Both the position numbers and the translations under genes were made by a program. This document shows positions 26 through 13,616 of a DNA stretch of 13,616 bases, piece by piece. The DNA lies in UHGV virus genome UHGV-0269933; one strand, given 5' to 3'. Source of the stretch: a virus. Under the pieces are notes generated by a model, which was not told the origin of the DNA, did no database searches, and saw only the letters and a program-made list of their open reading frames with translations. Within the stretch, counting starts at the first letter, position 1, and each line of letters starts with the position of its first letter.

Positions 26-63
26 AAAAGGCGCTACTCGGCATGGGGAAGCGCCTTTTTTAT
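26..63 (+). repeat. attL-type direct repeat (38 bp), also a Rho-independent terminator hairpin
   Basis: aaaaggcgctactcggcatggggaagcgccttttttat is identical to 11239..11276. GGCGCT...AGCGCC stem followed by a T-run. Confidence 0.8.
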
Positions 64-68
64 TAAAT

Positions 69-90
69 TGACTGCACCACTGACTGCACC
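69..90 (+). repeat. Tandem arm-type repeats TGACTGCACC(AC)TGACTGCACC, putative integrase arm sites (P' arm)
   Basis: Tandem 12-bp period repeat immediately inside the left att core. Near-identical tandem repeat at 11045..11068 in the same orientation. Confidence 0.55.
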
Positions 91-115
91 GATACACGAA
101 CTATAGCGAACGGCG

Positions 116-145
116 TTGAACGAAATCACCAACTAATCGTAATAT
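116..145 (+). promoter_or_regulatory. Sigma70-like promoter for the Abi-like gene (TTGAAC-N18-TAATAT)
   Basis: -35 TTGAAC at 116..121 and -10 TAATAT at 140..145. SD AAGGGG at 164..169 upstream of ATG 180. Confidence 0.4.
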
Positions 146-170
146 GATAAACCTCTACATATGAAGGGGT

Positions 171-944
171 ATGGTGTACATGAAGTCTATTCTTGATGAA
201 CTTAGTACTGATATTGAGCGCGCTGAAAGTCTACAGTCCCAGCTGATTAGCGTAGCTACTGGCGGACCTGCGTTACCATATGAATATCAGGAGCTAAGAC
301 GTTTTTTTGTTGAATCACCACTATATAGCAACATTATTCCCTCTTTCGTAAAAACAAACCGCAACACCGACCAATTTTGGCAATTTATTAAATACAAATT
401 TGGTACATATGCTGAAAGAAGGCAGTACATTTGGGATGAATTCCAAGAATTGATGGACTATCTGGAGGGTAAAAACAAAGCACCCGCAGATGAGGACATC
501 TCTGATGTATTAAGACGGTTTGATGAGGATGGTGTTCACACCGTGTGGATGAAAGCACTAGAACGGCGCCACACAGACCCGGATGGGGCGATAACCTCTG
601 CAAGAACACTTCTAGAAACGGTTTGCAAGCACATTCTTGATGATATGGATGTCCCCTATAATAATAAAAATATAGAAATGTCAGAGCTTTATAAAATACT
701 ATCAAAAGAACTTAACTTATCTGCCGACCAGCATACTGAAAGTATTTTCAAACAAATTCTTGGTGGTTGTTCAGCCGTTGTAAATGGGCTAGGTACTCTT
801 CGTAATAAACTTGGTGACGCACATGGAAAGAATCGCTCATCAGTTAAACCATCACCAAGGCATGCAGAACTCGCTGTAAATTTATCAGGCTCAATGGCTC
901 TTTTTCTAATTAGCTCATGGTTAAACCTTAAAGATAAAAATTAA
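171..944 (+). CDS. Abortive-infection family protein (Abi_C-like C-terminal domain); likely true start ATG at 180
   Basis: 257-aa ORF. C-terminal LGTLRNKLGDAHGK motif after a TLLETVCKHIL helix resembles the Abi_C family signature (from memory). AT-rich relative to flanks, own promoter and SD. Confidence 0.55.
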   Translation: MVYMKSILDELSTDIERAESLQSQLISVATGGPALPYEYQELRRFFVESPLYSNIIPSFVKTNRNTDQFWQFIKYKFGTYAERRQYIWDEFQELMDYLEGKNKAPADEDISDVLRRFDEDGVHTVWMKALERRHTDPDGAITSARTLLETVCKHILDDMDVPYNNKNIEMSELYKILSKELNLSADQHTESIFKQILGGCSAVVNGLGTLRNKLGDAHGKNRSSVKPSPRHAELAVNLSGSMALFLISSWLNLKDKN

Positions 945-969
945 TGAACTATGGACGTGATATGACCAA

Positions 970-1227
970 TTAGTTAATCATTATGTTCATCGGTTTAAGC
1001 TGTTTCTGGCTGTTCACCAGCCAATCTTGCATGTATTTGCACCAGGTACTGAACATCGCCTCATCAGTGCCTGGATAGGTGTACAGATACCCCATAAGGA
1101 CTTTATCGGTAATCTCATCCTCTTGATCCCAACCAATGATGAATTGACGAAATAGGCCGTATGATTTAGCCGGATCCGTATTCCTCCACGTTTCCACTAC
1201 TACATCGAATGCCGGAACCCTGAATGT
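970..1227 (-). pseudogene. 3' remnant of an unknown gene truncated by the IS66-family element
   Basis: Track ORF 970..1293; its N-terminal 22 aa are translation of the IS terminal repeat. Only the C-terminal ~85 aa (RVPAFDVVVETWRNTDPAKSYGLFRQF...) lie outside the IS. No start codon or SD. Confidence 0.35.
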
Positions 1228-2001
1228 GTAAGCGTGCAGTGAGAACCGTATTGACGAAGTGAAGCTGGTCAGGCAGGCAGAGTAACCCGCCACGGGAGCA
1301 GAGCACCCACCCGGTTCACAGGCCAGTCGGCGATGACATCAAGTACATAATGCAGATAGCGTTCCGGATCCACGCCGTTTAATTTGCACGTCCCGATAAG
1401 ACTGTACAGTGACGCACCGCGCTCACCACCATGATCCGAGCCGAAGAACAGCCAGTTTTTTCTCCCCAGACTGACCCGTCGTAGGGCGTTTTCGGCAATG
1501 TTATTATCCACCTCCACCCAGCCATCTTCTGCATAGCGGATCAGCGCCGGCCACTGGTTCAGCGCATACCCGAACGCCTTCGCCAGTTCTGAGTGCCTTG
1601 AGAGGGTTTTCTGTTTCTCCCGCAGCCACCCCTCCAGTGACGCCAGCAGCGGCAGCACTTTTTGGTGCCGGACTGCCTGCCGTTCCTCTGCTCTTTTACC
1701 TCTGATCTCCGACTCGATGGCATACAGCTCGCCGATCCGTTTCAGCGCCTCTTGCGAATGTCTGTCCTCTGGCTTTACTGGTGTTCATGTATTTTTCAAA
1801 GCCGGGGAGTGTAACTGACAGCGCTCGAAATACCTCTCGCGGTGTGCTAATCACTCGCTGGTGCTCCCGGCCAAATAATCTGATCAGAGGACCACTCAGT
1901 TTGATAGTTGTCATGACTTCTGCACATGGATTCATAGCCGCCTCAGTTAATTTTGGAGAAAGGAAACGGTTAGGCTTTTTTTAGCTCAAAATAGCGCTTA
2001 C
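1228..2001 (-). mobile_element. Internally deleted IS66-family insertion sequence remnant (~0.77 kb)
   Basis: GTAAGCG-type terminal sequences at both ends (1228 on +, 2001 on -). Contains the C-terminal ~170 aa of an IS66 TnpC-like transposase. No matching 8-bp target-site duplication (ctgaatgt vs catttcct). Confidence 0.7.
1269..1783 (-). pseudogene. IS66-family transposase (TnpC) C-terminal fragment
   Basis: Translation ...ALKRIGELYAIESEIRG...LAKAFGYALNQWPALIRYAEDGWVEVDNNIAENALRRVSLGRKNWLFFGSDHGGERGASLYSLIGTCKLNGVDPERYL...LLPW matches the conserved TnpC C-terminus. In-frame stop lies upstream at ~1786; N-terminal two-thirds absent. Confidence 0.8.
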
Positions 2002-2161
2002 CATTTCCTTTCTTTTTAGATGGTGTTTTCATTAAAAACATATAGTTACATCGAAGAAGAACAGAAACGGCAAATCGCAGAAAATTTTCATAAATAGCAA
2101 GAATCTGCGAGGTCGCCGCCCCGTAGCAGGCCGAATTGCCCGAAAGGACCCGCGCCGAAAT

Positions 2162-2268
2162 CGCTCAAACTTCAATCGGCCGAGTTTTCGAGGCGTTAAA
2201 GAGTAGATATGGGAATATCACATATGTAAAAACCAGCCGCGCTCAAACTTCAATCGGCCGAGTTTTCG
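2162..2268. repeat. Pair of perfect 29-bp direct repeats (2162..2190, 2240..2268) with embedded 9-bp-stem hairpin in second copy
   Basis: cgctcaaacttcaatcggccgagttttcg occurs twice, 78 bp apart. Second copy extends into aatcggccg-agtttt-cggccgatt inverted repeat. Confidence 0.6.
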
Positions 2269-2307
2269 GCCGATTACCAGGTCCGCCGGGTCATTCGGGC
2301 CTGTCGG

Positions 2308-2694
2308 TCAGCCAATCAACGTGCTTTTCCCGCCGCGAGCCTGCTGGCGCACACGCTCGGCCTTAAGGCAAAGAGATGCTTCAGGCTTAGCAGGTACAGG
2401 AACATGGCAGGTTTCAGAGGTCCGGGGAATGTTATTGATCCATTCAATAACTTCACTCAGATACCACGCCTTGCGCCCCTCAGTGACCTGGACGCGTACT
2501 GGAAACTCACCTCGCGCTTCGAGATTCAGCAATGTACGGCGGCTCAGCGTGGTGAGTTCTATGACCTGATTCATATCAACCAGGCGCTCACTGACGTTCA
2601 TTTTGTCTGCCATCTCCAGCAGTTCACCCACCACTGGATCCGGATAGAGAGCATTGGCGGTGGCCATCAGGCTGTTATTTTTATCTTGCATCAT
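2308..2694 (-). CDS. AlpA/Vis-family HTH DNA-binding protein (second copy, with N- and C-terminal extensions)
   Basis: Core MNQVIELTTLSRRTLLNLEARGEFPVRVQVTEGRKAWYLSEVIEWIN fits the phage AlpA/excisionase-type HTH pattern. Start ATGATG at 2694/2691 with AAGGAG SD; the 144-aa track ORF start is an unsupported upstream extension. Confidence 0.55.
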   Translation of the reverse strand: MMQDKNNSLMATANALYPDPVVGELLEMADKMNVSERLVDMNQVIELTTLSRRTLLNLEARGEFPVRVQVTEGRKAWYLSEVIEWINNIPRTSETCHVPVPAKPEASLCLKAERVRQQARGGKSTLIG

Positions 2695-2701
2695 AATCTC
2701 C

Positions 2702-3043
2702 TTACACCAGTGCCAGTGGCTGAACAGAAATACCAGAGCCAACGAACGCTGCTACTTTTGCAGAAAGCGTGGTTACATCATCAGGCCAGTTAAGGGCATC
2801 AACATTCAGCACGCCAGCTTTGTAGACCTGAGCATGTGTCTGGCTTGCGGTATCAACAGCAAAGCAAGATACATAGACAGCCTGCCCGGCATGCGCCCCA
2901 TCCCAGACCACCAAAGCCCCATTGGTAGCATCCTGCATAAGTGGAGTCAGCGCGGGAATAACGCCCTTTGCTCCAGCGAAGATACCCAGAGTTGTCACCA
3001 GCGCTTCAGTACCGGCCGCCAGTTCAGTGTAATGCGTCGTCAT
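2702..3043 (-). CDS. Phage head decoration protein, lambda gpD-like
   Basis: 113 aa; ALTPLMQDATNGALVVWDG...VYKAG...AAFVGSGISV aligns with lambda gpD (AMTPLMLDTSSRKLVAWDG...FYKSG...TAFAGTAISIV). AAGGAG SD; translationally coupled to upstream capsid gene. Confidence 0.75.
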   Translation of the reverse strand: MTTHYTELAAGTEALVTTLGIFAGAKGVIPALTPLMQDATNGALVVWDGAHAGQAVYVSCFAVDTASQTHAQVYKAGVLNVDALNWPDDVTTLSAKVAAFVGSGISVQPLALV

Positions 3044-3052
3044 GATTACTCC

Positions 3053-4093
3053 TTAGGCCACGCGAACGGTGACAAAACGGTTGATACGGGCCGGGATAGG
3101 CTGCGGTGCGGAGTGGGTCTGAACGTACTCAATAGCTGGGTCGCCAGGAACAATGTAGTTCTTTGGCGCCAGCTCAGCTTTGGTAATACCCATACGGATG
3201 AGCTCTGGATCCTGAATTCCGCCGTAGGCCACAATGCCCTGCAGGGCGGTGTTTCCCAGCACCATCAAATCAGGATCGAGGAAGTGCTTTTCGGTGCCGT
3301 CTTCGTCGGTATAGCGACCGCTATAAACCACAATAGCCACATCGCCCATATAGCCTTTAAAGCTCACTGAATCGCCCAGGTCTTTAAGTGCTGTTTCAAG
3401 CTGTGCGTTGGAGCCGCGGCGCGTGTCGAGTACATCTTTAATCGCTTTGAAAGAACGATATTTTTTCCAGACGTTCCCGCCCATAATGATGATATTGGTT
3501 ACGCCTTCACTCAGCTCTGAATAGGTTTCAATATCGTCATTTGGATCAAACGTCGTTTTATCTTTACCTGACCAGGCAGCGCCACCAGCCTGAGTGATTA
3601 TATTCTGGGATTTGATATTCCAGTCCAGCTCATAACGCTCGATCCCTTCCCCCTCAATAATATTTTTCCCGGTAGTTACAGCCTGAACAGCCAGCCATTC
3701 AATACGCGCACGAATAGCAATAGACTGTTTGAGGATTGACTGTTTTACCTTGATATTGCGGGTATCAAGCGTGCTGTATTGATCAGGAGTAACACCAGCA
3801 GGACGAACAGCCAGTTTGTTAGGGTCAATGTTGCTCTTTGGTTTCATGTAGCCAGGACGGATAGACTTGGACTCATATCCCTCATCACGCGCCACCTTAC
3901 TACCCACCATAGGCGAACAGAACGCCGCGATTGGAATATTTGGGTCGTCGATAGTGTCCAGGATGATATCGCGCGTTTCAAAAGTAACTGCGCGGGTAAA
4001 GAATAAATCAGTGAACAGGGTTTTTAGTTGCTTCTGAATATCCTCAGCGCTAACAACCCGAACCAGCGCCGCAGGTGAATATAAATCTGGCAT
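3053..4093 (-). CDS. Major capsid protein, lambda gpE-like
   Basis: 346 aa, full-length collinear similarity to lambda gpE (341 aa): PGYMKPK..., ITQAGGAAWSGKDKTTFDPNDDIETY..., FRSFKAIKDVLDTRRGSNAQLETALKDLG...YMGDVAIVVYSG...MVLGNT...YGGIQD...GDPA... SD GAGG upstream of ATG. Confidence 0.9.
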   Translation of the reverse strand: MPDLYSPAALVRVVSAEDIQKQLKTLFTDLFFTRAVTFETRDIILDTIDDPNIPIAAFCSPMVGSKVARDEGYESKSIRPGYMKPKSNIDPNKLAVRPAGVTPDQYSTLDTRNIKVKQSILKQSIAIRARIEWLAVQAVTTGKNIIEGEGIERYELDWNIKSQNIITQAGGAAWSGKDKTTFDPNDDIETYSELSEGVTNIIIMGGNVWKKYRSFKAIKDVLDTRRGSNAQLETALKDLGDSVSFKGYMGDVAIVVYSGRYTDEDGTEKHFLDPDLMVLGNTALQGIVAYGGIQDPELIRMGITKAELAPKNYIVPGDPAIEYVQTHSAPQPIPARINRFVTVRVA

Positions 4094-4301
4094 ATATTAC
4101 CTCAGTAAAATAAATAGAGCGTTCATCACAAAAATAATGTTAACACTGACAAACACAGAATGATTGAATGCAATGATGTGCAATAGAGTGCAATAATGTA
4201 TAAAGTTAATTCACGGTGATATGGCCCGCTAAATATCTGTTAATGTCCTCACTGTTATTTCCTCCAAATAACATCGTTCGTTAAAAATCCATGTTTTCCC
4301 A

Positions 4302-4331
4302 AGCGGGTCTGGTTGCAGCCCGCTTTTTTTT
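4302..4331 (+). terminator. Rho-independent terminator on + strand (hairpin + T8) with no annotated + strand gene upstream
   Basis: agcgggtctggttgcagcccgct stem-loop followed by tttttttt. Lies in the leader region upstream of the capsid gene. Confidence 0.45.
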
Positions 4332-4366
4332 CGTCTTTCGCAAAATTATGGATCGGCAAAATGAGT

Positions 4367-4646
4367 GGTGAAAATCACCCTACCCACAGCTTTAAAATTA
4401 AAAAATATCCTTTTAAGTGTTCACCCGTTCACCTTTGCGAATTTCTTAATTAAATTCATGTAGTTATAGGGTGAATACTACTCTTTCAGGTATTCACTAG
4501 TGTTCACCCTACCCTTCACCCTTTAGGGCAAAAAACAATCAAAAGGTGAACAGGTGAATACTTGGTGAATACTTAATAAATAAGTGTCCACCCCTTAACA
4601 CTCTGTTATTAATAGAATTTTAAACAGGGTGAATACTGGTGAACAC
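4367..4646. repeat. Iteron cluster of P4 ori/crr type (TGTTCACC / GTATTCACC), ~12 copies in both orientations
   Basis: TGTTCACC at 4418, 4426, 4501; GGTGAACA/GGTGAATAC at 4470, 4545, 4553, 4564, 4628, 4638; variants at 4490, 4513, 4585; GGTGAAAATCACC palindrome at 4367. Matches the P4 type I iteron motif bound by alpha (recalled). Confidence 0.7.
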
Positions 4647-4659
4647 TTTATCTATAACT

Positions 4660-5361
4660 TTACTCTACCCCTTCATTCTCAGTAGTGATTGCACATGATG
4701 GCATCCAGTCGCCAGAATCATCATGCAGGGTTACGTTAGAGCGTATGCCATGTTTGGTTTTCCGCTTCTGGTATTCCTTCCCATACTCAACCATTGCGCC
4801 AGGCATATCTGTACCGAACCGCATCAGTGAGACAGGCTTACTCAGGCCATTGGCTCTCATGTATGCCAGATAGGCGTGATACAGGTACTTGCGCGGGCTG
4901 AATGGCACTATCTCGGCATTACCGATAAACATCCCGTCACACACTACCGACGCCATCAGGTAGCCGCAGAAGTCCACCAGCGAATCACCTTCACGCTTGA
5001 TCGCCAGAGCCTCCTCTGATTTCTGCTGCTCATACAATAACCGTCTGGCTTCGTCCTGGTCTGCAAAACGTGTAAGCAGATGGCGGATAACTACAGCCAG
5101 TTCCCCTTCTATTTTCTCTGCCAGCATCGAGTCTCGCTCGTTTTCTGGTACAACCTCCGAGAAATTGAAAATAACCCGGCGCCGCGAAATCCCCCCGCTA
5201 CGGTCGCTGAATGTCATAGCATTGTTGTTTACCGCCAGCACCACCGCCGGAATACGGGTTGAATATGGTGCTTTATGTTTAGGATCGATAGACACCTTGT
5301 CACCACCAGTTATGGCCTTAATACCTGCACCATCGCCAGCGTACCGGGTCATATCAGGCAT
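4660..5361 (-). CDS. P4 alpha-type primase/helicase C-terminal (iteron-binding) domain homolog, stand-alone/truncated
   Basis: 233 aa beginning near the SF3-helicase arginine-finger region (AVVLAVNNNAMTFSDRSGGISRRRVIFNF). No Walker A/B or primase domain. Located immediately upstream of the TGTTCACC iterons, as the alpha 3' end is in P4. Confidence 0.55.
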   Translation of the reverse strand: MPDMTRYAGDGAGIKAITGGDKVSIDPKHKAPYSTRIPAVVLAVNNNAMTFSDRSGGISRRRVIFNFSEVVPENERDSMLAEKIEGELAVVIRHLLTRFADQDEARRLLYEQQKSEEALAIKREGDSLVDFCGYLMASVVCDGMFIGNAEIVPFSPRKYLYHAYLAYMRANGLSKPVSLMRFGTDMPGAMVEYGKEYQKRKTKHGIRSNVTLHDDSGDWMPSCAITTENEGVE

Positions 5362-5427
5362 AATGATCGTAATGTTCCTTTATTTCATGAATCGTAATAG
5401 GCATAAATTCTCCTTGTTTGTCTAACC

Positions 5428-5620
5428 TGCCGCATTTAGTGCCGCGTTTAGCAATGCCGCACTTAGCGCCGCACCAGTTTTCTCAAAAAATTACGCAAAC
5501 CCAGTAATGACGTGGGTTTCAGTGAAATGCCGCACTTAGCGCGTGTATACAGGGACTAAGTGCGGCATTTGGTCATAAAACATACTAAATGCCGCACATG
5601 CCGCACTTACCGCCGCATTT
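5428..5620. repeat. Cluster of >=5 copies of ATGCCGCACTTAGCGC-like repeats including a 15-bp perfect inverted repeat
   Basis: Copies at ~5428, 5455, 5527, 5554 (inverted), 5588-5620. AAATGCCGCACTTAG-N16-CTAAGTGCGGCATTT at 5526..5571. Hairpin aaaccca/tgggttt at 5497..5519. Confidence 0.6.
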
Positions 5621-6983
5621 ACTCGACTGTTACCGGGTAAAGGTTCTCACCCTCGATGCGAATAATTTGCTCACTCTCCAGCTTGTCCAGCCAGCGCGGG
5701 AATGACTTTCTCACTTTGTCTGAGCCCAGCGTTGCACGCAGATCGTCTTTAATGACGGAGATAGTGCATGGCTCCCCCTTAGCTGTTCGGCTGCGAACTG
5801 CCTGCCATAGTGCATGATGGTTATCGCTAAGACGGGATACATGGGCCAGTTCAGGCTCAACCTCTTTAGCCTCTCTCGGCTGATCGTGCACAACCAGAGA
5901 GCAAACAAGCTCGCCATCTTCATCGGTGTAAAGCTCTGCCGTTCTCAGGTCATACGCTTTACGCTCTGGCTCCTCCGCGTCTTTCATCTTGGTACAGGTC
6001 AGAATAAGCGCTTTTCCATCCCCTTCACGCTTAACGTTAAATTCAGTATCAAGCGCAGCGCGGAAAGCACTGGAACCGCGAGCGCCTTTCCCTTCATCTT
6101 TGCCGGAGTGGTGAACTACCAGCACCGTTGCACCCGTTTTCTGTTTGATAACGTCACACCCTTCAATAAATGCCCCCATATCACGAGCATCGTTCTCGTC
6201 GTTACCGCCAAAACAACGGGCCAGCGTATCGATCACCACCATGCGAACCGGCACACCACATTCGGCTTCAATCTGCCTGGCAGCCAGAAGAACTTCTGTA
6301 ACCTCTGACTCACGCACCGGGAACACCGGACGATTGACCAGCCAGAGGTTGTCTGCCTGTATGCCATGCACCTGTTCCCATGCCCGTATACGCCGGGGAA
6401 CACCTACACCACCCTCGCCAACCACATACAGCACCGCGCCGGGAGTGACCTTCTTCCCCGCCCATGGCAGACCAGCAGCGATATGACAGGCCCACGACAC
6501 GGCAAGAAAACTCTTATACGAACCGCTGGGGCCGTAAATGCTGCACAGTGATTGCGCTGGCAGAAAGTGTTTAAGGATATAGTCCTGACGGATATCAAAG
6601 CCCTCAGAACCGCGAGAGAGAGGCAGCTTTGTCCTGAACTTTGCACCAGCATCAGGGAATACGCGGTGAATGCGCTGCACGTCAGACAGCATGGCATTCA
6701 TTTCCCCTTCGCCTATCTCTTCCACCAGCACAGAACGCCGCGCGGTAATCATATGTTTGCGGTCGGTATCGAGATACCCGGCATCACAAAGCTCCTCATA
6801 CGGCATTGCTGCTATCTGGTTGAGGCGAGCCACCAGCTTTCCGTAACGGGTAGTGGGGTCCTTATGCTGGTGGAGAGCTTTATCCAAATCGCTGCGACTG
6901 TACTGCTTGCCATGCGCCCACAGATACGAACAGGTGAACAAGGCATCCGATACGGTTTCTACAGCTGTCAGTTGTACCGTCAT
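5619..6983 (-). CDS. RepA-like replicative helicase / AAA_25 (RecA-fold) ATPase with N- and C-terminal accessory domains
   Basis: 454 aa; Walker A GPSGSYKS, Walker B-like VVIDTLARCF, HHSGKDEGKGARGSSA motif typical of RSF1010 RepA/DnaB-like helicases. ATGA overlap with upstream gene. Confidence 0.75.
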   Translation of the reverse strand: MTVQLTAVETVSDALFTCSYLWAHGKQYSRSDLDKALHQHKDPTTRYGKLVARLNQIAAMPYEELCDAGYLDTDRKHMITARRSVLVEEIGEGEMNAMLSDVQRIHRVFPDAGAKFRTKLPLSRGSEGFDIRQDYILKHFLPAQSLCSIYGPSGSYKSFLAVSWACHIAAGLPWAGKKVTPGAVLYVVGEGGVGVPRRIRAWEQVHGIQADNLWLVNRPVFPVRESEVTEVLLAARQIEAECGVPVRMVVIDTLARCFGGNDENDARDMGAFIEGCDVIKQKTGATVLVVHHSGKDEGKGARGSSAFRAALDTEFNVKREGDGKALILTCTKMKDAEEPERKAYDLRTAELYTDEDGELVCSLVVHDQPREAKEVEPELAHVSRLSDNHHALWQAVRSRTAKGEPCTISVIKDDLRATLGSDKVRKSFPRWLDKLESEQIIRIEGENLYPVTVE

Positions 6984-7348
6984 TTTGGAATGCCCCCGCT
7001 CATCTGGAATTTGCCGATCAGAGGATGGAACCAGTATGCAGAGCCATATTTGCGCTTAGCACTGCGCAGCACCAACCGTGCCGCTTCCCTGAACTTTTCA
7101 TCAGGTGCAACGAACCCGCCTGATTTCAGTTTAACCAGCATCACCCCTGTGTTTTTCGCCAGCTCCTCAGCCTTTTTGGTTGAGATACCGTATTCAGCAG
7201 CCAGTGTTGCTACTGGCGTCATACCCGGAGGGATTTCTCCGCCCTGACTATCGGTAAGTGATTTAACCTGAGCCTCAAGGCGCAAGACCTTCTCAACCAG
7301 CAGATCAACGCGGTTAGCCAGTTCGTTAAACTTCACATTGCTGATCAT
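6980..7348 (-). CDS. Hypothetical protein with N-terminal coiled coil and putative HTH
   Basis: 122 aa; TPVATLAAEYGISTKKAEELAK looks HTH-like. ATGA start/stop overlaps on both sides. Confidence 0.55.
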   Translation of the reverse strand: MISNVKFNELANRVDLLVEKVLRLEAQVKSLTDSQGGEIPPGMTPVATLAAEYGISTKKAEELAKNTGVMLVKLKSGGFVAPDEKFREAARLVLRSAKRKYGSAYWFHPLIGKFQMSGGIPK

Positions 7349-7572
7349 GGTCTTGCCTCCTGCGTTTCAGGGTCTGAAAAAGTAGAAATATCCAGTGAGT
7401 TTGCCAGTTCGTCAGAAAGGCGCTGAGCCAGGTGCGTTAAACTCATTACATGGATACGCTCCGCCTCCCCCTTGATAGTTGAAAGGTAAGCAGCACATGA
7501 CATGAGCGCAGCAACCTCTTGCGCCAGTAACAGCAAATCTTTTTTGCTGCGGTAGGTGTAAAAGTTATCCAT
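7345..7572 (-). CDS. Hypothetical small protein (75 aa)
   Basis: Start ATG at 7572 overlaps upstream stop (ATGGATAA). Track ORF 7345..7689 extends upstream without support. Confidence 0.5.
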   Translation of the reverse strand: MDNFYTYRSKKDLLLLAQEVAALMSCAAYLSTIKGEAERIHVMSLTHLAQRLSDELANSLDISTFSDPETQEARP

Positions 7573-7750
7573 TGAGCGCTCCCGTTTCATTCTGCTCCAC
7601 CATGCTTGCCGCAAGTTGATCCGATACTCGTCTGGCCAGACTGATAAGGTTTTCACGCTCAACCTGATCAACGTCGTACTCTTCGACAACCATCAACAAC
7701 GCAGCCAGTTCACAGGCTATTGACGCACTTTTATTGGTTAATTCACGCAT
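7565..7750 (-). CDS. Hypothetical small protein (61 aa)
   Basis: Start ATG at 7750 in ATGCGTGA overlap with upstream gene stop. Track ORF 7565..7912 is an upstream extension in another gene's sequence. Confidence 0.5.
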
Positions 7751-8012
7751 GGCGCACCTCCTGAATAGCTGCGCTATCGAACTCCCAGCCACGGCGGGTG
7801 GTGTAATCGAAAAACGCAACGCGACAAGGAGACTGGGCGCGGATTTTGGCAGCGAAAACCAAATCCCAGCCGGGGAATGCAGAGCGGGCTTTATCTTCCG
7901 TATCAGCATCAAAGCGGAGCACTACAGGTGTGCATTTTGGGGTGTGGTCTGGGGTTGCCAGGAATAACCATGTAAATTCCGGGCGAGTTTGGGTATGCTG
8001 TTGATCAGCCAT
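7743..8012 (-). CDS. Hypothetical protein (89 aa), first gene of replication operon
   Basis: Start ATG at 8012 with GGAG SD ([13 protein letters not shown]...). The 318-aa track ORF 7743..8699 upstream of this Met is low-complexity, Cys/Arg/Ser-rich non-coding translation. Confidence 0.55.
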
Positions 8013-8139
8013 AACTGTTACTCCGATTAACGGTTTGGTTAGACGCCCTGGTACTGCTCTAACAGTCCGGGGCGTTGCTTTTTGGTATGCACCTGCCATA
8101 CACTTGATTACCATTTCAAAGTAATCAGGTGTCAACCAA

Positions 8140-8319
8140 ATGTCAACCATAGAAATTAAAGCCAAAGGTAACAAGCAGATCGCATTACGCGTAGAACCAA
8201 ACCTAGAAGAAGGAATTAAACAGGCTCTGGCGCAAGATGGTGACGCTTCTGTATCAGCATGGATAAAGCGAATAATCCGCAAAGAGTTACAGCAGCGAGG
8301 CATTGAGCCGAAAAGCTGA
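8140..8319 (+). CDS. Small ribbon-helix-helix-like DNA-binding protein (59 aa), candidate island regulator/repressor; absent from ORF track
   Basis: ATG 8140 with AGGTG SD 9 nt upstream; stop TGA 8317..8319. KQIALRVEP strand plus two amphipathic helices fits Arc/MetJ/CopG topology. Divergent from the replication operon across a 127-bp region. Confidence 0.5.
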
Positions 8320-8499
8320 TACCCAAAATCTGGGTAACGGTCGAAACTACGGGAATTCTCCGGGGTATGCTGCATTGCAGTACACCCGGCACTCTGTTCC
8401 AGTTCTCCCCAGATTTGGGGAAATGGGGTATGCGCCAATGCCGTACACCCTAAACAGCCCAATTTCTGGGTAGTTTCACGTAACCGCGCCATTGACACA

Positions 8500-8519
8500 G
8501 TTCCTGTAATTACAGGAAC
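8500..8519. promoter_or_regulatory. 20-bp perfect palindrome GTTCCTGTAATTACAGGAAC adjacent to TTGACA; candidate operator
   Basis: Perfect dyad symmetry. TTGACA hexamer at 8492..8497 immediately upstream. Confidence 0.45.
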
Positions 8520-8588
8520 GCTCAGGCTTTGACCACCAGCATTAACCCTGGTATCCTGACTTTGCTTAATTTTTTGGTAGTGACATTG

Positions 8589-8616
8589 GCGGCCCGGCAT
8601 GGCCGCTTTTGTTTTA
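8589..8616 (+). terminator. Rho-independent terminator on + strand
   Basis: gcggcc-cggcat-ggccgc hairpin followed by ttttgtttta; ~270 nt downstream of the RHH gene stop. Confidence 0.55.
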
Positions 8617-8634
8617 TGTGACATTCCCCACCCC

Positions 8635-8844
8635 TCACGCTGCTTTGCTGCGGCTCTGCTGCCATGCTGTGACCTCAGAAAGAAGCCAACCAACGGCACG
8701 ACCTCCCAGCTTACGGCGGGCGGGAAAGCTCCCCTCTTTTTCCATCATGTATCGAGTGGTTCGACAAATACCGGTTAGCTGTCGGCACTCAGCCTCACGG
8801 ATAACTCTTTCTGCTGGCTGCTGGGATTGTTTAATATTGTTCAT
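8635..8844 (-). CDS. alpA: AlpA-family transcriptional regulator (prophage CP4-57-type)
   Basis: 69 aa from MNNIKQ; ...[43 protein letters not shown] is the AlpA HTH signature. The longer 81-aa reading would translate through a hairpin and has no SD. Confidence 0.75.
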
Positions 8845-8880
8845 AAAAAAATGCTCTCGTTCGCTAAGGTTCGAGAGCAT
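8845..8880 (-). terminator. Terminator-like hairpin with 9-bp perfect stem directly abutting the alpA start codon
   Basis: On the - strand, atgctctcg-aaccttagcgaa-cgagagcat followed by ttttttt then ATG of alpA. The 3' arm contains the only SD-like GAGAG. Confidence 0.45.
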
Positions 8881-8959
8881 TGTTATTCAACAAAATTATC
8901 ACCGCGACGGTGAGAAAAAAATTATATTCCTCTAAAGGAGTTACCCTTATTCAGTTATA

Positions 8960-9802
8960 TCAAGATAATTCTTTCCTGATTTTATCTAAAGAATCACTTC
9001 TTATGATTTTATCCAAGAAAGGTTTTACCGTTTGAGCTATGGCAAAGGACTCCTTTTCTCCATCCGGGAACAGGGATACTGCGAGTACGCCAAGAGATAT
9101 TTTGCTGTCGGTAGCGCTTTCCCATGACATCAAATCAATAAGTGGAATTATTCTGTAGTCAATTATTTTCCGTCTGACGCTCTCCCAGTCCCCTGAGACT
9201 GGCTTATCTGGTTCAGGTATTCCGAGTTCTTCGCGCCATTTTGGGAGGAGGTTCGTGAATGCTTCAATCAAAAGATCATCTCTGTTGTTTAAGTCAACAG
9301 TAATCATCACGTTTTCCACAACATCAGAAAGTAAGTTTACTGGCTCGCGCATGATAGCCCAAAACATACCGTTATCTGCTGTAAACAAATCCCCCACCAA
9401 ATCATCGTCAACTACTATTGGCTTTCCTTTCCAGTGACCTTTATCAGCATTGATTTTATTTAAAAATGCCAACTCAAATCTCATTAATGGTTTTATACCA
9501 TCGCCGTAACTTAATTTTAGCAAATCAGGCTGAGTCTTGTACTCGTATTCCTTTTGCTTTTCAAGAAACCATTCTTCTGCTTTGAGTTCCCCGAATGGAT
9601 CACCAAAATTATTGTTAAGCGGGTATTTAGCACCATATTGCAAACCATAGTCAGGGCAGTCTGTATTTTTTATTGCTAAATCATCGCATCGCCAATAGAG
9701 CTGACGAAACAAATCCTTATCAGACATATTTTCAAGGTCATCATATTTTTCCAAGCTGAATGACTTTGGTAAGTCTCTTTTACTGTTAATTTTTTTTGTC
9801 AT
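8960..9802 (-). CDS. Hypothetical protein (280 aa), AT-rich cargo gene translationally coupled to integrase; function unknown
   Basis: ATG overlaps the integrase stop codon (ATGA). Markedly lower GC than neighbours; acidic, Lys/Asp/Glu-rich; no motif recognised. Confidence 0.6.
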   Translation of the reverse strand: MTKKINSKRDLPKSFSLEKYDDLENMSDKDLFRQLYWRCDDLAIKNTDCPDYGLQYGAKYPLNNNFGDPFGELKAEEWFLEKQKEYEYKTQPDLLKLSYGDGIKPLMRFELAFLNKINADKGHWKGKPIVVDDDLVGDLFTADNGMFWAIMREPVNLLSDVVENVMITVDLNNRDDLLIEAFTNLLPKWREELGIPEPDKPVSGDWESVRRKIIDYRIIPLIDLMSWESATDSKISLGVLAVSLFPDGEKESFAIAQTVKPFLDKIIRSDSLDKIRKELS

Positions 9803-11022
9803 CTTGCGACCTCAAGAATAGTAACATTTGAGATATCAGAGGTAATAACCTCTAATCTCTGCATCCATTTATTCAGTGCATCCAGCTTTTCAGGTAAATA
9901 CTGACTGCGGTTATATACGGACATGACACCGCCCAGCGCATGGCCCAGAAGCTGCTCGACAACATGCGGAGCAATTCCCATGTTGTTCAGAGTCGTGGAA
10001 AACGTACGGCGTAGATCGTGAAGCGTCCACGGTTCAGAGTGGCCCAGACGCTTATACAACATCCTTCCCCACTGACTGACAGCTTCCGGTTTCTTTATCT
10101 CTCCAAGCAAAAGCCCTGTGCTTTGGTGCTGCTCTAAGAGCTGTTTGATAAATGGGCGGATATCTACGGGAATAGGACGTAGTATTTTCTCACCACCTTT
10201 GCTGTGCTCTTTAGGTACAGTCCAAACCCAATCACTTAGATCCCATTCGGTTACGCGAGACAATCTCAACTCCTGAGTTCGGCACCCAAACACTACTAGC
10301 AGACGTAGCAGCGAGGAGTAGTAGGGCTTGAATTTCAAGCCTGAACACTCCCGCCATATATCAGCCAGTTCTTGCCGGGTATGTTCCCTGTCCCGTTTAT
10401 TCTGTTTACGTCCAACATCATCAATGGTCAGATCGTCCAGGACATTACTCACCGCGTACCGATGAACACGGCAGAACTTGAGGGCTTGCTTACACATTTG
10501 CAGAAGATAGCCAGCAGCTACAGGAGCCTCATCTCTCACCCTGCTGAAACACTCCAGCCAGTGGCGGGTTTCGCACATAGAGAGGGGAAACGCCCCAATA
10601 TATGGGTAGATATGCTTATTGAGCTGTTCTATATGCTTTTCTACATTAGCCCGTTTATGAGATGCATATTCCCTTATCCAGTATTCAAGTGCCTCTTTTA
10701 CAGTTACCGGCTTAAGTGTTTCCTGTGTGGTGACAGTTAACTGGTGTTTCGGGTTCTTCCCCTCAGCAAGCCAGGCACGACATTGATCTCGCTTTGCCCT
10801 CGCGGCCTTAAGTGAAAGATCGGGATAGTTACCTAACTTCAAACGCTGAGGGGCAGTACTGCGTCCACCAATACGGTATGTAAAATACCAGGTCATTATG
10901 CCTATCTTTGACACCTTTACGCTCAGGCCATCACCATCAGCGTAAAAGCTATCACCGGGGCTTTCCCTCCCAACCATCTTGCGGAGCGATGTATCGCTTA
11001 ACTTGTTCGTTCCACCAGCCAT
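9799..11022 (-). CDS. int: Site-specific tyrosine recombinase, P4-type integrase (Arm-binding N-domain + catalytic domain)
   Basis: 407 aa. N-terminal ...DGDGLSVKVSKIGIMTWYFTYRIGG...LKLGNYPDLSLKAARAKRD arm-binding pattern. C-terminal HDLRRTFST...LGHALGGVMSVYNRSQY catalytic motifs, similar to P4 Int. GAGG SD. Confidence 0.9.
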   Translation of the reverse strand: MAGGTNKLSDTSLRKMVGRESPGDSFYADGDGLSVKVSKIGIMTWYFTYRIGGRSTAPQRLKLGNYPDLSLKAARAKRDQCRAWLAEGKNPKHQLTVTTQETLKPVTVKEALEYWIREYASHKRANVEKHIEQLNKHIYPYIGAFPLSMCETRHWLECFSRVRDEAPVAAGYLLQMCKQALKFCRVHRYAVSNVLDDLTIDDVGRKQNKRDREHTRQELADIWRECSGLKFKPYYSSLLRLLVVFGCRTQELRLSRVTEWDLSDWVWTVPKEHSKGGEKILRPIPVDIRPFIKQLLEQHQSTGLLLGEIKKPEAVSQWGRMLYKRLGHSEPWTLHDLRRTFSTTLNNMGIAPHVVEQLLGHALGGVMSVYNRSQYLPEKLDALNKWMQRLEVITSDISNVTILEVAR

Positions 11023-11044
11023 AAAAACCTCAGTTCATTTTTGG

Positions 11045-11068
11045 CACTGACTACACCACTGACTACAC
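11045..11068 (+). repeat. Tandem arm-type repeats CACTGACTACAC x2 (P arm)
   Basis: Perfect tandem 12-mer between the integrase start and the att core; homologous to the repeats at 69..90. Confidence 0.55.
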
Positions 11069-11195
11069 ATCTCAATGTTACTCTATGAACAGCAATGAAC
11101 AAAGGCAAACCAGAAAAACGATATTATCGTTATATATCATAATAATACACGAACAACAGCAAACATAACCGAACGGTAAAAAACGTAGGTTTTGA

Positions 11196-11213
11196 AAATA
11201 CGGCATGAACTAA
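11196..11213 (+). other. fis: Last six codons of fis (K-Y-G-M-N-stop) at the island/chromosome junction
   Basis: aaa tac ggc atg aac taa encodes the conserved Fis C-terminus. Stop lies 85 bp upstream of the yhdJ ATG. Sequence upstream is integrase leader, not fis. Confidence 0.5.
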
Positions 11214-11238
11214 TTCAGGTTAGCTAAATGCTTGATTA

Positions 11239-11276
11239 AAAAGGCGCTACTCGGCATGGGGAAGCGCCTTTTTTAT
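11239..11276 (+). terminator. attR-type direct repeat, the fis Rho-independent terminator
   Basis: Identical to 26..63. GC-rich hairpin followed by a T6 run, upstream of yhdJ. Confidence 0.8.
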
Positions 11277-11298
11277 AGGTGTCACAAAGGGAGTGACC

Positions 11299-12183
11299 AT
11301 GAGAACAGGATGTGAACCGACCCGGTTTGGTAATGAAGCTAAGACCATTATTCACGGTGATGCCCTTGCCGAACTTAAAAAGCTACCTACTGAAAGCGTC
11401 GATCTGATCTTTGCCGACCCACCGTATAACATCGGTAAAAATTTTGATGGTCTGATCGAAGCCTGGAAAGAAGATCTGTTTATCGACTGGCTGTTTGAAG
11501 TGATTGCAGAGTGCCACCGCGTTCTGAAAAAGCAGGGCAGCATGTACATTATGAACAGTACGGAAAACATGCCCTTTATCGATCTCCAGTGCCGCAAGCT
11601 TTTTACCATCAAAAGTCGCATCGTCTGGTCATATGACAGTTCTGGAGTACAGGCGAAAAAACACTACGGCTCCATGTACGAACCCATCCTGATGATGGTG
11701 AAAGACGCAAAGAACTACACATTCAACGGTGATGCTATTCTGGTAGAAGCCAAAACCGGATCGCAGCGCGCGTTGATCGATTATCGCAAAAATCCTCCAC
11801 AGCCATACAATCATCAAAAAGTACCGGGTAACGTCTGGAATTTTCCGCGCGTGCGTTATTTAATGGATGAATATGAGAACCACCCGACGCAAAAACCGGA
11901 AGCCTTACTGAAACGCATTATTCTCGCCTCTTCCAACCCAGGCGATATCGTTCTCGACCCGTTTGCCGGTAGCTTTACTACCGGTGCCGTAGCCATCGCC
12001 AGCGGACGAAAATTCATTGGTATTGAGATCAACAGCGAGTACATCAAAATGGGGCTTCGACGGCTGGATGTCGCGTCGCATTACTCCGCGGAAGAACTGG
12101 CGAAAGTGAAAAAAAGAAAGACGGGCAACCGGTCAAAACGATGCCGGGTTAGCGAAGTTGACCCCGATCTCATTGCAAAGTAA
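11299..12183 (+). CDS. yhdJ: DNA adenine (N6) methyltransferase YhdJ
   Basis: 294 aa from MRTGCEPTRFGNEAK...; DPPY motif (FADPPYNIG); C-terminal SAM-binding motif DPFAGSFTTG. SD AAAGGGAG. Track start at GTG 11293 is less likely. Confidence 0.9.
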   Translation: MRTGCEPTRFGNEAKTIIHGDALAELKKLPTESVDLIFADPPYNIGKNFDGLIEAWKEDLFIDWLFEVIAECHRVLKKQGSMYIMNSTENMPFIDLQCRKLFTIKSRIVWSYDSSGVQAKKHYGSMYEPILMMVKDAKNYTFNGDAILVEAKTGSQRALIDYRKNPPQPYNHQKVPGNVWNFPRVRYLMDEYENHPTQKPEALLKRIILASSNPGDIVLDPFAGSFTTGAVAIASGRKFIGIEINSEYIKMGLRRLDVASHYSAEELAKVKKRKTGNRSKRCRVSEVDPDLIAK

Positions 12184-12266
12184 AGGAAGTGTAAGCCTGG
12201 TTTTCAGATTATTCATTTCGTGTATATTTCCTGCCAGACTTGGTTAAACATGCACAGGCTCAGGTA

Positions 12267-12446
12267 ATGATTCGCAAGTATTGGTGGCTCGTCGTTTTCG
12301 CTGTCTTCGTTTTTCTGTTTGATACTTTACTGATGCAGTGGATTGAACTGCTGGCAACAGAAACAGACAAATGCCGTAATATGAACTCAGTTAATCCACT
12401 AAAACTGGTTAACTGTGACGAACTGAATTTTCAGGACAGAATGTGA
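12267..12446 (+). CDS. yhdU: Small membrane protein YhdU
   Basis: 59 aa from MIRKYWWLVVFAVFVFLF... with one hydrophobic helix; conserved position between yhdJ and envR. Confidence 0.75.
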   Translation: MIRKYWWLVVFAVFVFLFDTLLMQWIELLATETDKCRNMNSVNPLKLVNCDELNFQDRM

Positions 12447-12448
12447 AT

Positions 12449-13111
12449 TTACATGACACTTAATTCATTCGTTTGATGAATTAATTTCGTTATGTTTTCA
12501 TCTGGCATGAACATTCTTAATACGTTATCGACCAGCGCGGGTGCTTGTTTATAAAGATCATAACCCGCCATATTCATTAACCAGTTTTGAACAATTCCGC
12601 TGAAGGCACCATCAATAATAATCATCACAACATCTAAATCGAGGTTATTTGCTACACAACCTTGTTGCTGACACGCCTGCAATACTTCGCGGAGAGTCTG
12701 CGGATTAAAGCCCATCTTTTCGCGTATCACTCCCTCGGCCAGCATCTCATCATTAAATTCACATTTGTGATATAAGATTTTCAGCAACGCCTGCTGGCGG
12801 GGAATTTTGGCAATATATTGCAAGCCGACAATCAATTTTTCACGCAATTGTTGAAACGGGTCATGCTCTAATCCAGCCGTCAAGTGTTCCTGGATTAACT
12901 CCCGCAATGAAGGCTGTTGCAACCACATCTCATTAAACAGTTGAGTCTTGTTTTCGAAGTGCCAGTAGATAGCGCCACGCGTAACGTTAGCAGCGTCGGC
13001 AATGTCGTTGAGCGTCGTCTTGCTTACGCCATGCTGCGCAAACTGGGCGATGGCAGTTTCAATCAGTTCTTGCCGGGTCTTCAGAGCTTCGGCTTTGGTT
13101 CTTTTTGCCAT
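12449..13111 (-). CDS. envR: TetR-family repressor EnvR (AcrS) of acrEF
   Basis: 220 aa, N-terminal TetR HTH (TRQELIETAIAQFAQHGVSKTTLNDIADAANVTRGAIYWHF). Divergent from acrE. Confidence 0.9.
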   Translation of the reverse strand: MAKRTKAEALKTRQELIETAIAQFAQHGVSKTTLNDIADAANVTRGAIYWHFENKTQLFNEMWLQQPSLRELIQEHLTAGLEHDPFQQLREKLIVGLQYIAKIPRQQALLKILYHKCEFNDEMLAEGVIREKMGFNPQTLREVLQACQQQGCVANNLDLDVVMIIIDGAFSGIVQNWLMNMAGYDLYKQAPALVDNVLRMFMPDENITKLIHQTNELSVM

Positions 13112-13509
13112 GATTAATTATTCAGGAAATAAATATATTCGACACAGGGTGAGAAAATAGCGAAGGTTAATCTATCATCTAATGTGTATTTATACGAGAG
13201 GGTAACATTAAGTTGCTATAAATCGTCAAATAAATAATATATATTATTTACCTAAAATACATTCGCCACATGAATATATATTTCAATTTACGAGGTTTTA
13301 ATTCTACCTCTTTCAACCCGCGTCAAAATAAAACAGTAGAATATTAATCTTTTTTTGTGTTTATGTGCCTTGAGACGCCAGTATTCATAACTATTCCTTA
13401 CATCGACGAATGATAATTTGTAGGATAGCAAACTGTATTTTTCTTTCTGCGAGTTAACGCGTTGCCTTTCTGGGTAAATAACGCGCTTTTGGTTTTTTGA
13501 GGAATAGTA

Positions 13510-13616
13510 ATGACGAAACATGCCAGGTTTTTCCTCCTGCCCTCCTTTATTCTGATCTCCGCGGCTTTAATCGCCGGTTGTAACGATAAGGGAGAAGAGA
13601 AAGCTCACGTCGGTGA
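13510..13616 (+). CDS. acrE: Multidrug efflux periplasmic adaptor lipoprotein AcrE, 5' partial (runs off window)
   Basis: MTKHARFFLLPSFILISAALIAGCNDKGEEKAHVG: lipoprotein signal peptide with lipobox LIAGC. SD GAGGA. Confidence 0.85.
   Translation, partial: MTKHARFFLLPSFILISAALIAGCNDKGEEKAHVG

Follow-up and report, generated by a model that had tools for sequence, protein, structure and literature searches.

The octamer array and the gene that precedes it

The virus genome UHGV-0269933 was analysed over a stretch of 13,616 nucleotides (the window), which contains an integrated island with E. coli DNA at its flank. Near the middle of this island, a minus-strand open reading frame (ORF) of 233 aa (4660-5361), related to the replication protein alpha of satellite phage P4, is followed by a dense array of short repeats and preceded by a second set of replication functions of the RepA type. 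Here, we describe the array and its gene, the recombination junction that separates them from the RepA-type functions, and the origin from which the island is likely to replicate.

The octamer GGTGAAYA occurs in 11 exact copies on both strands of the 13.6-kb window, eight of which fall within the 228 bp from 4418 to 4645. Dinucleotide-preserving shuffles (n=200) give a chance expectation of 0.86 +/- 0.95 copies for the whole window, and none of the 200 shuffles reaches 11. With at most one mismatch, 12 GGTGAAYA/TRTTCACC octamers in both orientations lie within 4367-4645, where GC amounts to 31-40% as against 50-56% in the flanking genes. This confirms what a sequence-only reading of the window had reported, namely about 12 P4-type octamers in both orientations within some 280 bp of AT-rich DNA. 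There is no second cluster elsewhere in the window: the three exact copies outside 4418-4645 are found at 4074 (about 340 bp away), 1011 and 6933, and a separate crr element (cis replication region) several kb from the origin, as in P4, is absent.

The first octamer follows 14 nt past the stop codon (4660-4662) of the 233-aa ORF. Read in the sense of this gene, the octamers at 4638-4645, 4628-4635, 4564-4571, 4553-4560, 4545-4552, 4470-4477 and 4367-4374 have the form TRTTCACC (<), and those at 4585-4592, 4501-4508, 4491-4498, 4426-4433 and 4418-4425 the form GGTGAAYA (>); a weak copy with two mismatches, GGTGAAGG, is located at 4513-4520. The gene-proximal half of the array (4545-4645, minus strand) is composed of six octamers in the order < < > < < <, with an AT-rich spacer of about 35 bp between the first pair and the inverted copy. 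The distal half (4418-4520, minus strand) reads > > > < > >, beginning with the weak copy, and roughly mirrors the proximal half across a T-rich centre at 4521-4544.

Both halves belong to a conserved iteron origin block of the alpha/Pri-Rep type (4389-4659, minus strand), which in gene-sense extends from just past the stop codon to an AT-rich end, ...GGTGAACACTTAAAAGGATATTTTTTAATTTTA. The bounds given in the sequence-only reading, 4367-4646, enclose genuine octamer copies but overshoot this block, leaving 4367-4379 outside of what is conserved in relatives. Here lies a palindrome, GGTGATTTTCACC, which includes an octamer with one mismatch (TTTTCACC), was flagged as terminator-like, and is missing from the sibling contig L177; it may be an extra octamer copy or a small hairpin. 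Another terminator-like element, a GC-rich hairpin GCGGGTCTGGTTGCAGCCCGC followed by eight T's (4297-4335, plus strand), faces the origin from the capsid side; it is kept in L177, and the region upstream of it has no called gene on the plus strand. Neither Rfam nor tRNA scans returned a match, and promoter and terminator scans stayed at or near background and were uninformative. A full-text literature search for TGTTCACC returned unrelated primer matches only, and searches on origins of phage-inducible chromosomal islands of the capsid-forming kind (cf-PICIs) and on P4 crr provided background and no description of this array.

The 233-aa ORF itself is a truncated pri-rep gene, encoding the tail of a superfamily 3 (SF3) helicase domain, a linker, and a winged-helix origin-binding domain of the P4 alpha type. 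Residues 125-221 match the sequence of the P4 alpha origin-binding domain from its crystal structure (1KA8) with E = 6.5e-28, and the class-A signature residues are common to the ORF and P4. In an AlphaFold2 (AF2) model, which was built with 43 homologs and used for secondary structure and confidence only, residues 127-222 form a winged helix with a predicted local distance difference test score (pLDDT) above 90, and residues 1-67, which score below 50, are predicted to be unfolded. Pfam detects only positions 68-114 of the 114 positions of DUF5906, together with Pox_D5, while D5_N, the Walker A motif and the N-terminal domain (the putative primase region) are missing. The window thus encodes neither a primase and SF3 helicase in one polypeptide nor an adjacent intact Pri-Rep. 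The ORF is the last 233 codons of a primase-helicase of about 585-630 aa, of which some 350 codons were lost at the junction described below, and its start ATG corresponds to an internal Met that is conserved in the full-length protein. The alpha C-terminal-domain homolog recognized upstream of the array in the sequence-only reading is therefore real with respect to the 1KA8 match, but it is the stump of a primase-helicase and no designed small gene. Its product would presumably bind the array and neither unwind nor prime.

In front of the stump, a 16-codon leader ORF, MPITIHEIKEHYDHYA (5354-5404, minus strand), is derived from a 79-aa island gene, of which it keeps codons 1-15, and is equipped with an AAGGAG ribosome-binding site. 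The TGA stop of the leader and the ATG of the 233-aa ORF overlap, and translational coupling of the two is possible.

A scan of one genome per species yielded 80 loci (L006-L085) with relatives of the stump at 56-96% identity over 233 residues. In nearly all of them, the matching frame comprises 584-846 aa, the exceptions being five interrupted frames and another five truncated by the end of a contig. The domains are arranged as D5_N, DUF5906, Pox_D5, which in Xenorhabdus, Enterobacter and P4 are preceded by a Zn-ribbon and Toprim. Many matches of 226-264 aa had raised the possibility that alpha-domain proteins of about 233 aa constitute a genuine family of small genes; this was rejected, because the three homologs of that size examined (P0002, P0010 and P0016) are frameshift or deletion fragments starting at the same internal Met, and because most of the 80 loci have long frames.

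An octamer cluster is found within 450 bp past the stop codon in about 75 of the 80 loci. At the nucleotide level, the array of the window is 77-86% identical to the DNA that follows full-length primase genes in islands of Kluyvera, Raoultella, Klebsiella, Pectobacterium and E. coli, and it is alignable as a whole in Kluyvera, Raoultella, Klebsiella, Citrobacter, Pectobacterium and Pantoea. These arrays share the AT-rich end ...CTTAAA..ATATTTTTTAATTTTA; homology breaks at about 4389, after which the genomes diverge, and the layout is kept after primase genes irrespective of the DNA downstream. Octamer columns are conserved at 94%, spacer columns at 84%. A single octamer of the window deviates: at 4585-4592 it reads GGTGGACA, as opposed to GGTGAACA in nine of nine aligned relatives, among them three sibling hybrids. 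This change may be a first sign of relaxed constraint, or it may be meaningless.

Across the loci, the octamers fall into three mutually exclusive classes, GGTGAACA, GGTGGAGA and GGTAGACA, all of them in one array layout. The GGTGAA class accounts for 67 of the 78 classified loci as well as for the window and P4, the GGTGGA class for seven loci (Yersinia, Rahnella, Erwinia, Edaphovirga), and the GGTAGA class for five (Kluyvera georgiana, Escherichia ruysiae, Enterobacter, Scandinavium). When the C-terminal 125 residues of the initiators are aligned, most positions at which the classes differ fall into two clusters, window residues 169-171 and 202-208, and initiators of the GGTAGA class have an insertion of 4-5 residues. 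Further such positions are isolated (145, 210 and 223), and the long helix 179-191 does not distinguish the classes. According to the AF2 model, 169-171 are the end of helix 160-170 and 202-208 the tip of the beta-hairpin wing 199-208, so that recognition of the variable octamer positions 4, 5 and 7 would fall to the wing and the end of the helix. This covariation of octamer class and wing residues argues that the octamers are very probably the binding sites of the winged-helix domain of the initiator. The octamer classes and a few wing residues make up a candidate specificity code, which is open to residue and site swaps.

The recombination junction and the RepA replicon

Just upstream of the stump, a three-way alignment places a recombination junction within the microhomology GATCAT(T/C)ATGCC at 5361-5370. 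Homology to all primase-type islands stops at 5367/5368, and homology to the RepA-type island L091 stops at 5361. The island of E. coli HZ13 (NZ_CP128609) is approximately 94-95% identical to the window in the blocks 5361-7761 and 8321-13616, the part in between being largely unalignable. The crossover joins codon 15 of the 79-aa island gene, out of frame, to the primase at ...GYSLII|MPDMTRYAGDG, a point inside the Walker-B-like strand of the helicase core.

On the other side of the junction, an intact gene for a RepA-family (AAA_25) helicase of 454 aa (5619-6983, minus strand; Pfam AAA_25, E = 6e-43) lies 257 bp upstream of the 233-aa ORF in the same orientation. Its counterpart in HZ13 is annotated as 'helicase RepA family protein'. 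Directly after the repA stop codon (5619), a second iteron origin, cognate to RepA, occupies 5415-5618 (minus strand) and is made up of an AT-rich stretch with about nine copies of (A)AGTGCGGCA arranged around it in either orientation. Six of the 11 one-mismatch matches to AGTGCGGCA in the window fall in this segment, with 3.05 expected for the window as a whole. The segment is about 95% conserved in the E. coli islands L091 and L092. Moreover, nearly all of 80 RepA relatives from IMG/VR show a repeated 8-mer, mostly in 3-8 copies, at most 300 bp after repA. Variants of this 8-mer, including AAGTGCGGCA, AAGTGGGGA, AAGTGGGTA, AAGTGCGCG and AAATGCGC, suggest a co-variation of initiator and site as in the primase family. 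Since a repeated 8-mer follows repA in nearly all of the 80 relatives, we take the RepA helicase and its array to be a complete and conserved replicon, with RepA as the probable working initiator/helicase of the island. What is exceptional is the placement of this replicon beside a P4-type origin: neither a GGTGAA cluster nor an alpha-domain gene was found within 1.6 kb of repA in any of the 80 IMG/VR relatives, nor in L091 where it is annotated.

The junction divides an island of approximately 11.2 kb, with a 55-nt direct repeat at either end (9-63 and 11222-11276, both plus strand, 91% identical). The right repeat lies beside the integrase gene (9799-11022) and chromosomal yhdJ, and the host flank, yhdJ-yhdU-acrS-acrE, shares 99.7% identity with E. 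coli. The direct repeats are likely the attachment sites; they also include a hairpin resembling a terminator, GGCGCTAC...GAAGCGCC, with a run of T's behind it. The right arm (5361-11276) comprises the integrase, DUF6387, AlpA, small ORFs, and repA with its origin. It is shared, along with the attachment site, with RepA-helicase islands at yhdJ in HZ13 and SCU-125, which are annotated like capsid-forming PICIs. Those islands go on to an HK97-type capsid, protease, portal and terminase, whereas the window switches at 5361. No HK97-type capsid, protease, portal, head-tail connectors or large terminase were found in the window, which sets its island apart from the capsid-forming PICIs.

The left arm (451-5368) comprises Abi, a regulator resembling AlpA, homologs of head-decoration D and of capsid E, the origin, and the 3' end of pri-rep. 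It is colinear with one PICI of the type of EcCICFT073 over its whole length. For this reason, position 4389 was rejected as a second recombination junction, and a single crossover suffices. The island is a hybrid of two PICIs.

Additional observations concern the left arm. An exact lambda cosN, GGGCGGCGACCT (2110-2121, minus strand), is followed by two identical 29-nt direct repeats (2162-2190 and 2240-2268) 78 bp apart, and lambdoid phages, HK97 and HK022 among them, match the 57-bp stretch 2188-2244 with 100% identity. The cos packaging region of the island is probably located here. At the left end of the island, on the opposite strand, a gene with an abortive-infection C-terminal domain (Abi_C; 171-944, plus strand) is likely an anti-phage cargo. 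It shares 86% identity with the 'abortive infection family protein' gene that occupies this position in an island of E. coli WP8-S17-ESBL-12 (NZ_AP022222, 3535238-3546520; L093). That island is a PICI of the EcCICFT073 type, inserted in the major capsid gene of a lambdoid prophage, which it splits into annotated N- and C-terminal fragments, and its cargo includes capsid E and decoration D homologs of its own, a TIR-domain gene, and the Abi gene. Where L093 has a small terminase gene, the window shows a fragment of IS66 tnpC (99-100% identical to E. coli copies) and a 79-aa fragment of a phage tail-assembly gene (about 1220-1935). The hybrid appears to lack terS.

Origin use and the fate of the stump

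Fillol-Salom et al. 2018 (PMC6092414) describe PICI origins as two iteron sets flanking an AT-rich region, 3' of rep. The array of the window, immediately 3' of pri-rep, agrees with this definition. In the same study, a segment of EcCICFT073 with pri-rep and ori supported plasmid maintenance; a rep mutant gave no colonies, and deletion of ori reduced them significantly. Because it is homologous to the tested EcCICFT073 array, the array of the window belongs to an experimentally supported class of origins. The designation as a probable replication origin is consequently right with respect to the sequence class, but it probably does not name the origin from which the island replicates. We consider it probable that the array is a genuine origin of the P4/PICI type, orphaned by truncation of its initiator, and that the island replicates from the RepA origin.

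The following course of events would account for the locus. The array would offer a primase-helicase initiator 8-bp sites for its C-terminal winged-helix domain, in two roughly mirror-image sets around the T-rich centre, and melting would start in the terminal AT-rich stretch. In intact relatives, as judged from P4 and EcCICFT073, the initiator encoded upstream would bind these sites, assemble the SF3 helicase, and prime. A microhomology-mediated crossover at 5361-5370 would then have joined two elements. One donor was presumably a RepA-type island, contributing everything from the integrase through repA and its origin (5361-11276). The other was presumably the right arm of an EcCICFT073-type PICI (about 60-5368), contributing the 3' third of pri-rep, the origin, the capsid E/D homologs, AlpA, cos and Abi. 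One illegitimate crossover would be enough, e.g., a deletion between two islands integrated in tandem. The resulting hybrid most likely relies for its replication on the RepA helicase and on the iteron origin with AGTGCGGCA copies (5415-5618), while the P4-type array would fire only if an initiator of the GGTGAACA class is supplied in trans by P4 (alpha) or by a co-resident PICI (Pri-Rep). The earlier view that the array ties the island to P4-family replication finds no support, since the initiator is truncated, a complete RepA replicon is located 770 bp away upstream, and the nearest family is that of the PICIs.

The hybrid is a viable, circulating element. Four metagenome contigs with 92-96% identity to the window share its 27-nt junction, which persists in at least three different island contexts; in two of these contigs (L175 and L176), what lies past the array bears no relation to the window. 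Several features of these copies weigh against an origin that has simply fallen out of use, beginning with this very persistence of the junction. The 233-aa ORF is intact in the window and in three of the four contigs, with differences that are almost all synonymous. Pairwise ratios of nonsynonymous to synonymous substitution rates (dN/dS) are 0.01-0.03 for the stump, and 0.02-0.03 for repA among the junction-bearing copies. Outside obvious patches, 17-20 synonymous stand against 2-3 nonsynonymous codon differences in the stump (P ~1e-8 under neutrality), an excess which would fit selection on the stump. Apart from the one changed octamer, the array is essentially undecayed, and the leader ORF, whose stop overlaps the start of the stump, could allow the stump to be expressed.

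These features favour an alternative in which stump and array are a retained functional module. In one variant, the expressed 233-aa fragment would occupy GGTGAACA iterons and act as a dominant-negative or incompatibility factor against P4 and PICIs of the same class. In others, the array would serve as an iteron sink, or as a second origin that can be activated in trans and piggy-backs on the initiator of another satellite. The P4 work of Ziegelin and Lanka is said to have found that the isolated C-terminal domain of P4 alpha binds DNA alone, and 1KA8 is a structure of the isolated domain. Opportunities for such encounters exist, as P4-like, PICI and cfPICI elements co-occur in several hundred genomes: P4-like elements were found together with PICIs in 227 genomes and with cfPICIs in 379 (PMC10085698). 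The same study states that co-occurrence of these elements in E. coli is rarer than expected by chance. Iteron plasmids follow a comparable logic, in that extra iterons, or a Rep fragment capable of DNA binding only, can titrate or block the cognate initiator; they have no sequence relationship to the window, where such interference is hypothetical. That stump and orphan array are kept in order to block the replication of P4 and same-class PICIs, or to be replicated by the initiator of a rival, is a conceivable, though in our judgement unlikely, reading. If it is true, domain truncation would have made a replication-level weapon for the competition of satellites with one another.

The synonymous excess has another possible source. 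Divergence among the junction-bearing copies is patchy, with blocks of 20-25% beside flanks of 0-2%, and segments of the stump differ in their nearest full-length allele, being up to 97% identical to that of Kluyvera georgiana. Such patchy and mosaic divergence is a signature of gene conversion from functional genes, which can explain the excess, and dN/dS was accordingly downgraded as proof of selection on the stump. Furthermore, the module has been lost in one of the siblings: L174 (OIER01000723.1) has the same junction and a second breakpoint at window position 4982, which leaves a 133-aa ORF; the winged-helix domain and the whole P4-type array are gone, and repA is kept. Stump and array are hence a relic that is refreshed frequently, or else a module that has been retained. 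The evidence leans to the former, because the 67-residue unfolded remnant of the helicase is still present, because L174 lost the module, and because none of the 80 RepA-type islands from IMG/VR carries it.

Considerably less probable is a split initiator, in which the array would be the working origin of the island and the 233-aa protein would recruit the RepA helicase to it. It is true that binding domain and sites are adjacent and intact, and that repA precedes them at a short distance in the same orientation. However, RepA has a conserved array of its own after its stop codon in the window, L091 and L092, with repeats in nearly all of the 80 relatives, and none of these relatives has an alpha-domain gene or GGTGAA cluster within 1.6 kb of repA. 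Likewise, the junction lies out of frame in another gene and cuts the helicase core in mid-strand, and every other small form examined is a pseudogene fragment. Finally, that the array is no origin at all and has clustered by chance, acts as an operator of the downstream capsid E/D genes (transcribed in the same direction), or is a packaging site, is hardly credible in view of the shuffling result, the layout conserved after primase genes whatever lies downstream, the homologous arrays in EcCICFT073 and P4 that are origins, and the exact lambda cosN elsewhere.

With an orphaned origin as the probable explanation, the array by itself is an ordinary member of a known origin type and no new replication system. 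The island gains its significance as a nucleotide-resolved example of the exchange of replication modules between satellites. As the hybrid with its tandem origins and truncated initiator has spread and diversified, it raises the question of replication interference between co-resident satellites.

Comparison with P4 and EcCICFT073

The P4 record X51522 annotates 'ori type 1 repeats' reading TGTTCACC/GGTGAACA, six of them in ori (9310-9413) and ten in crr (4291-4590), the latter including GGTGAATA variants. Ori and crr are both required in cis for P4 replication, and Ziegelin and Lanka reportedly showed in 1995 that alpha binds the type-1 repeats through its C-terminal domain. A BLAST comparison of the window with P4 DNA gave no match at 1e-10, and the comparison with P4 thus draws on the identity of the octamers, on their spacing, and on local alignments scored against shuffles.

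In all three respects, the motif comparison with ori and crr that the sequence-only reading had proposed turned out in favour of a common type. The octamer of the window is identical to the P4 type-1 repeat. Its six gene-proximal copies agree with P4 ori in number, in orientation (< < > < < <), and nearly in spacing, with relative starts of 0, 10, 53, 74, 85 and 93 in the window and 0, 10, 53, 75, 86 and 96 in P4 ori (both in alpha gene-sense). The proximal half thereby reproduces the ori arrangement of two direct copies, an AT-rich spacer, one inverted copy and three direct copies. The last three octamers of the window are spaced by 44 and 52, as compared with 43 and 52 in one crr unit. Local alignment scores are 75 for the proximal half against ori and 65 for the distal half against crr in gene-sense, each with a shuffle mean of 23, where the z-scores are inflated since shuffling destroys the repeats. 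The array thus resembles a fusion of two units, one of the ori type and one of the crr type, in a single element of about 270 bp.

In P4, the two are separate elements flanking the alpha operon at a distance of about 4.5-5 kb from each other. Here, crr and not ori directly follows alpha, and ori lies about 4.7 kb away, beyond the operon. Hence, the place of the window array just after an alpha-like gene is that of crr, and the P4 ori arrangement downstream of alpha, as it had been described, applies to the layout of the octamers but not to their position. The cognate winged-helix domain is clearly homologous in both systems. Full-length close relatives of the window initiator differ from P4 alpha by lacking the Zn-ribbon and Toprim, and the window copy is truncated besides. 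As had been noted from the sequence, sid, delta and psu are missing; together with epsilon, they were found neither among the called ORFs of the window nor among their Pfam/PHROG matches. Because of this absence, the island is not a P4-like satellite by the SatelliteFinder core set, and its capsid E/D homologs and cos point to a PICI instead.

The nearest family is that of the Gram-negative PICIs of the EcCICFT073 type, of which EcCICFT073 is the archetype, and not P4. In EcCICFT073, too, the array follows directly 3' of pri-rep, in the same 2-1-3 and mirror layout with two iteron sets flanking AT-rich DNA, and the left arm of the window has the same homologs of capsid E and decoration D, together with a lambda cos site. 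The EcCICFT073 Pri-Rep comprises 584 aa and is 45% identical to the 233-aa ORF over the length of the latter. The differences are the octamer, which is GGTAGACA in EcCICFT073 and GGTGAACA in the window, the cut of the window initiator to 233 aa, and the RepA-type second replicon fused upstream. The layout of P4 ori is thus kept octamer for octamer in PICI origins across Enterobacterales, which links, in their origin architecture, two satellite families that are usually kept apart.

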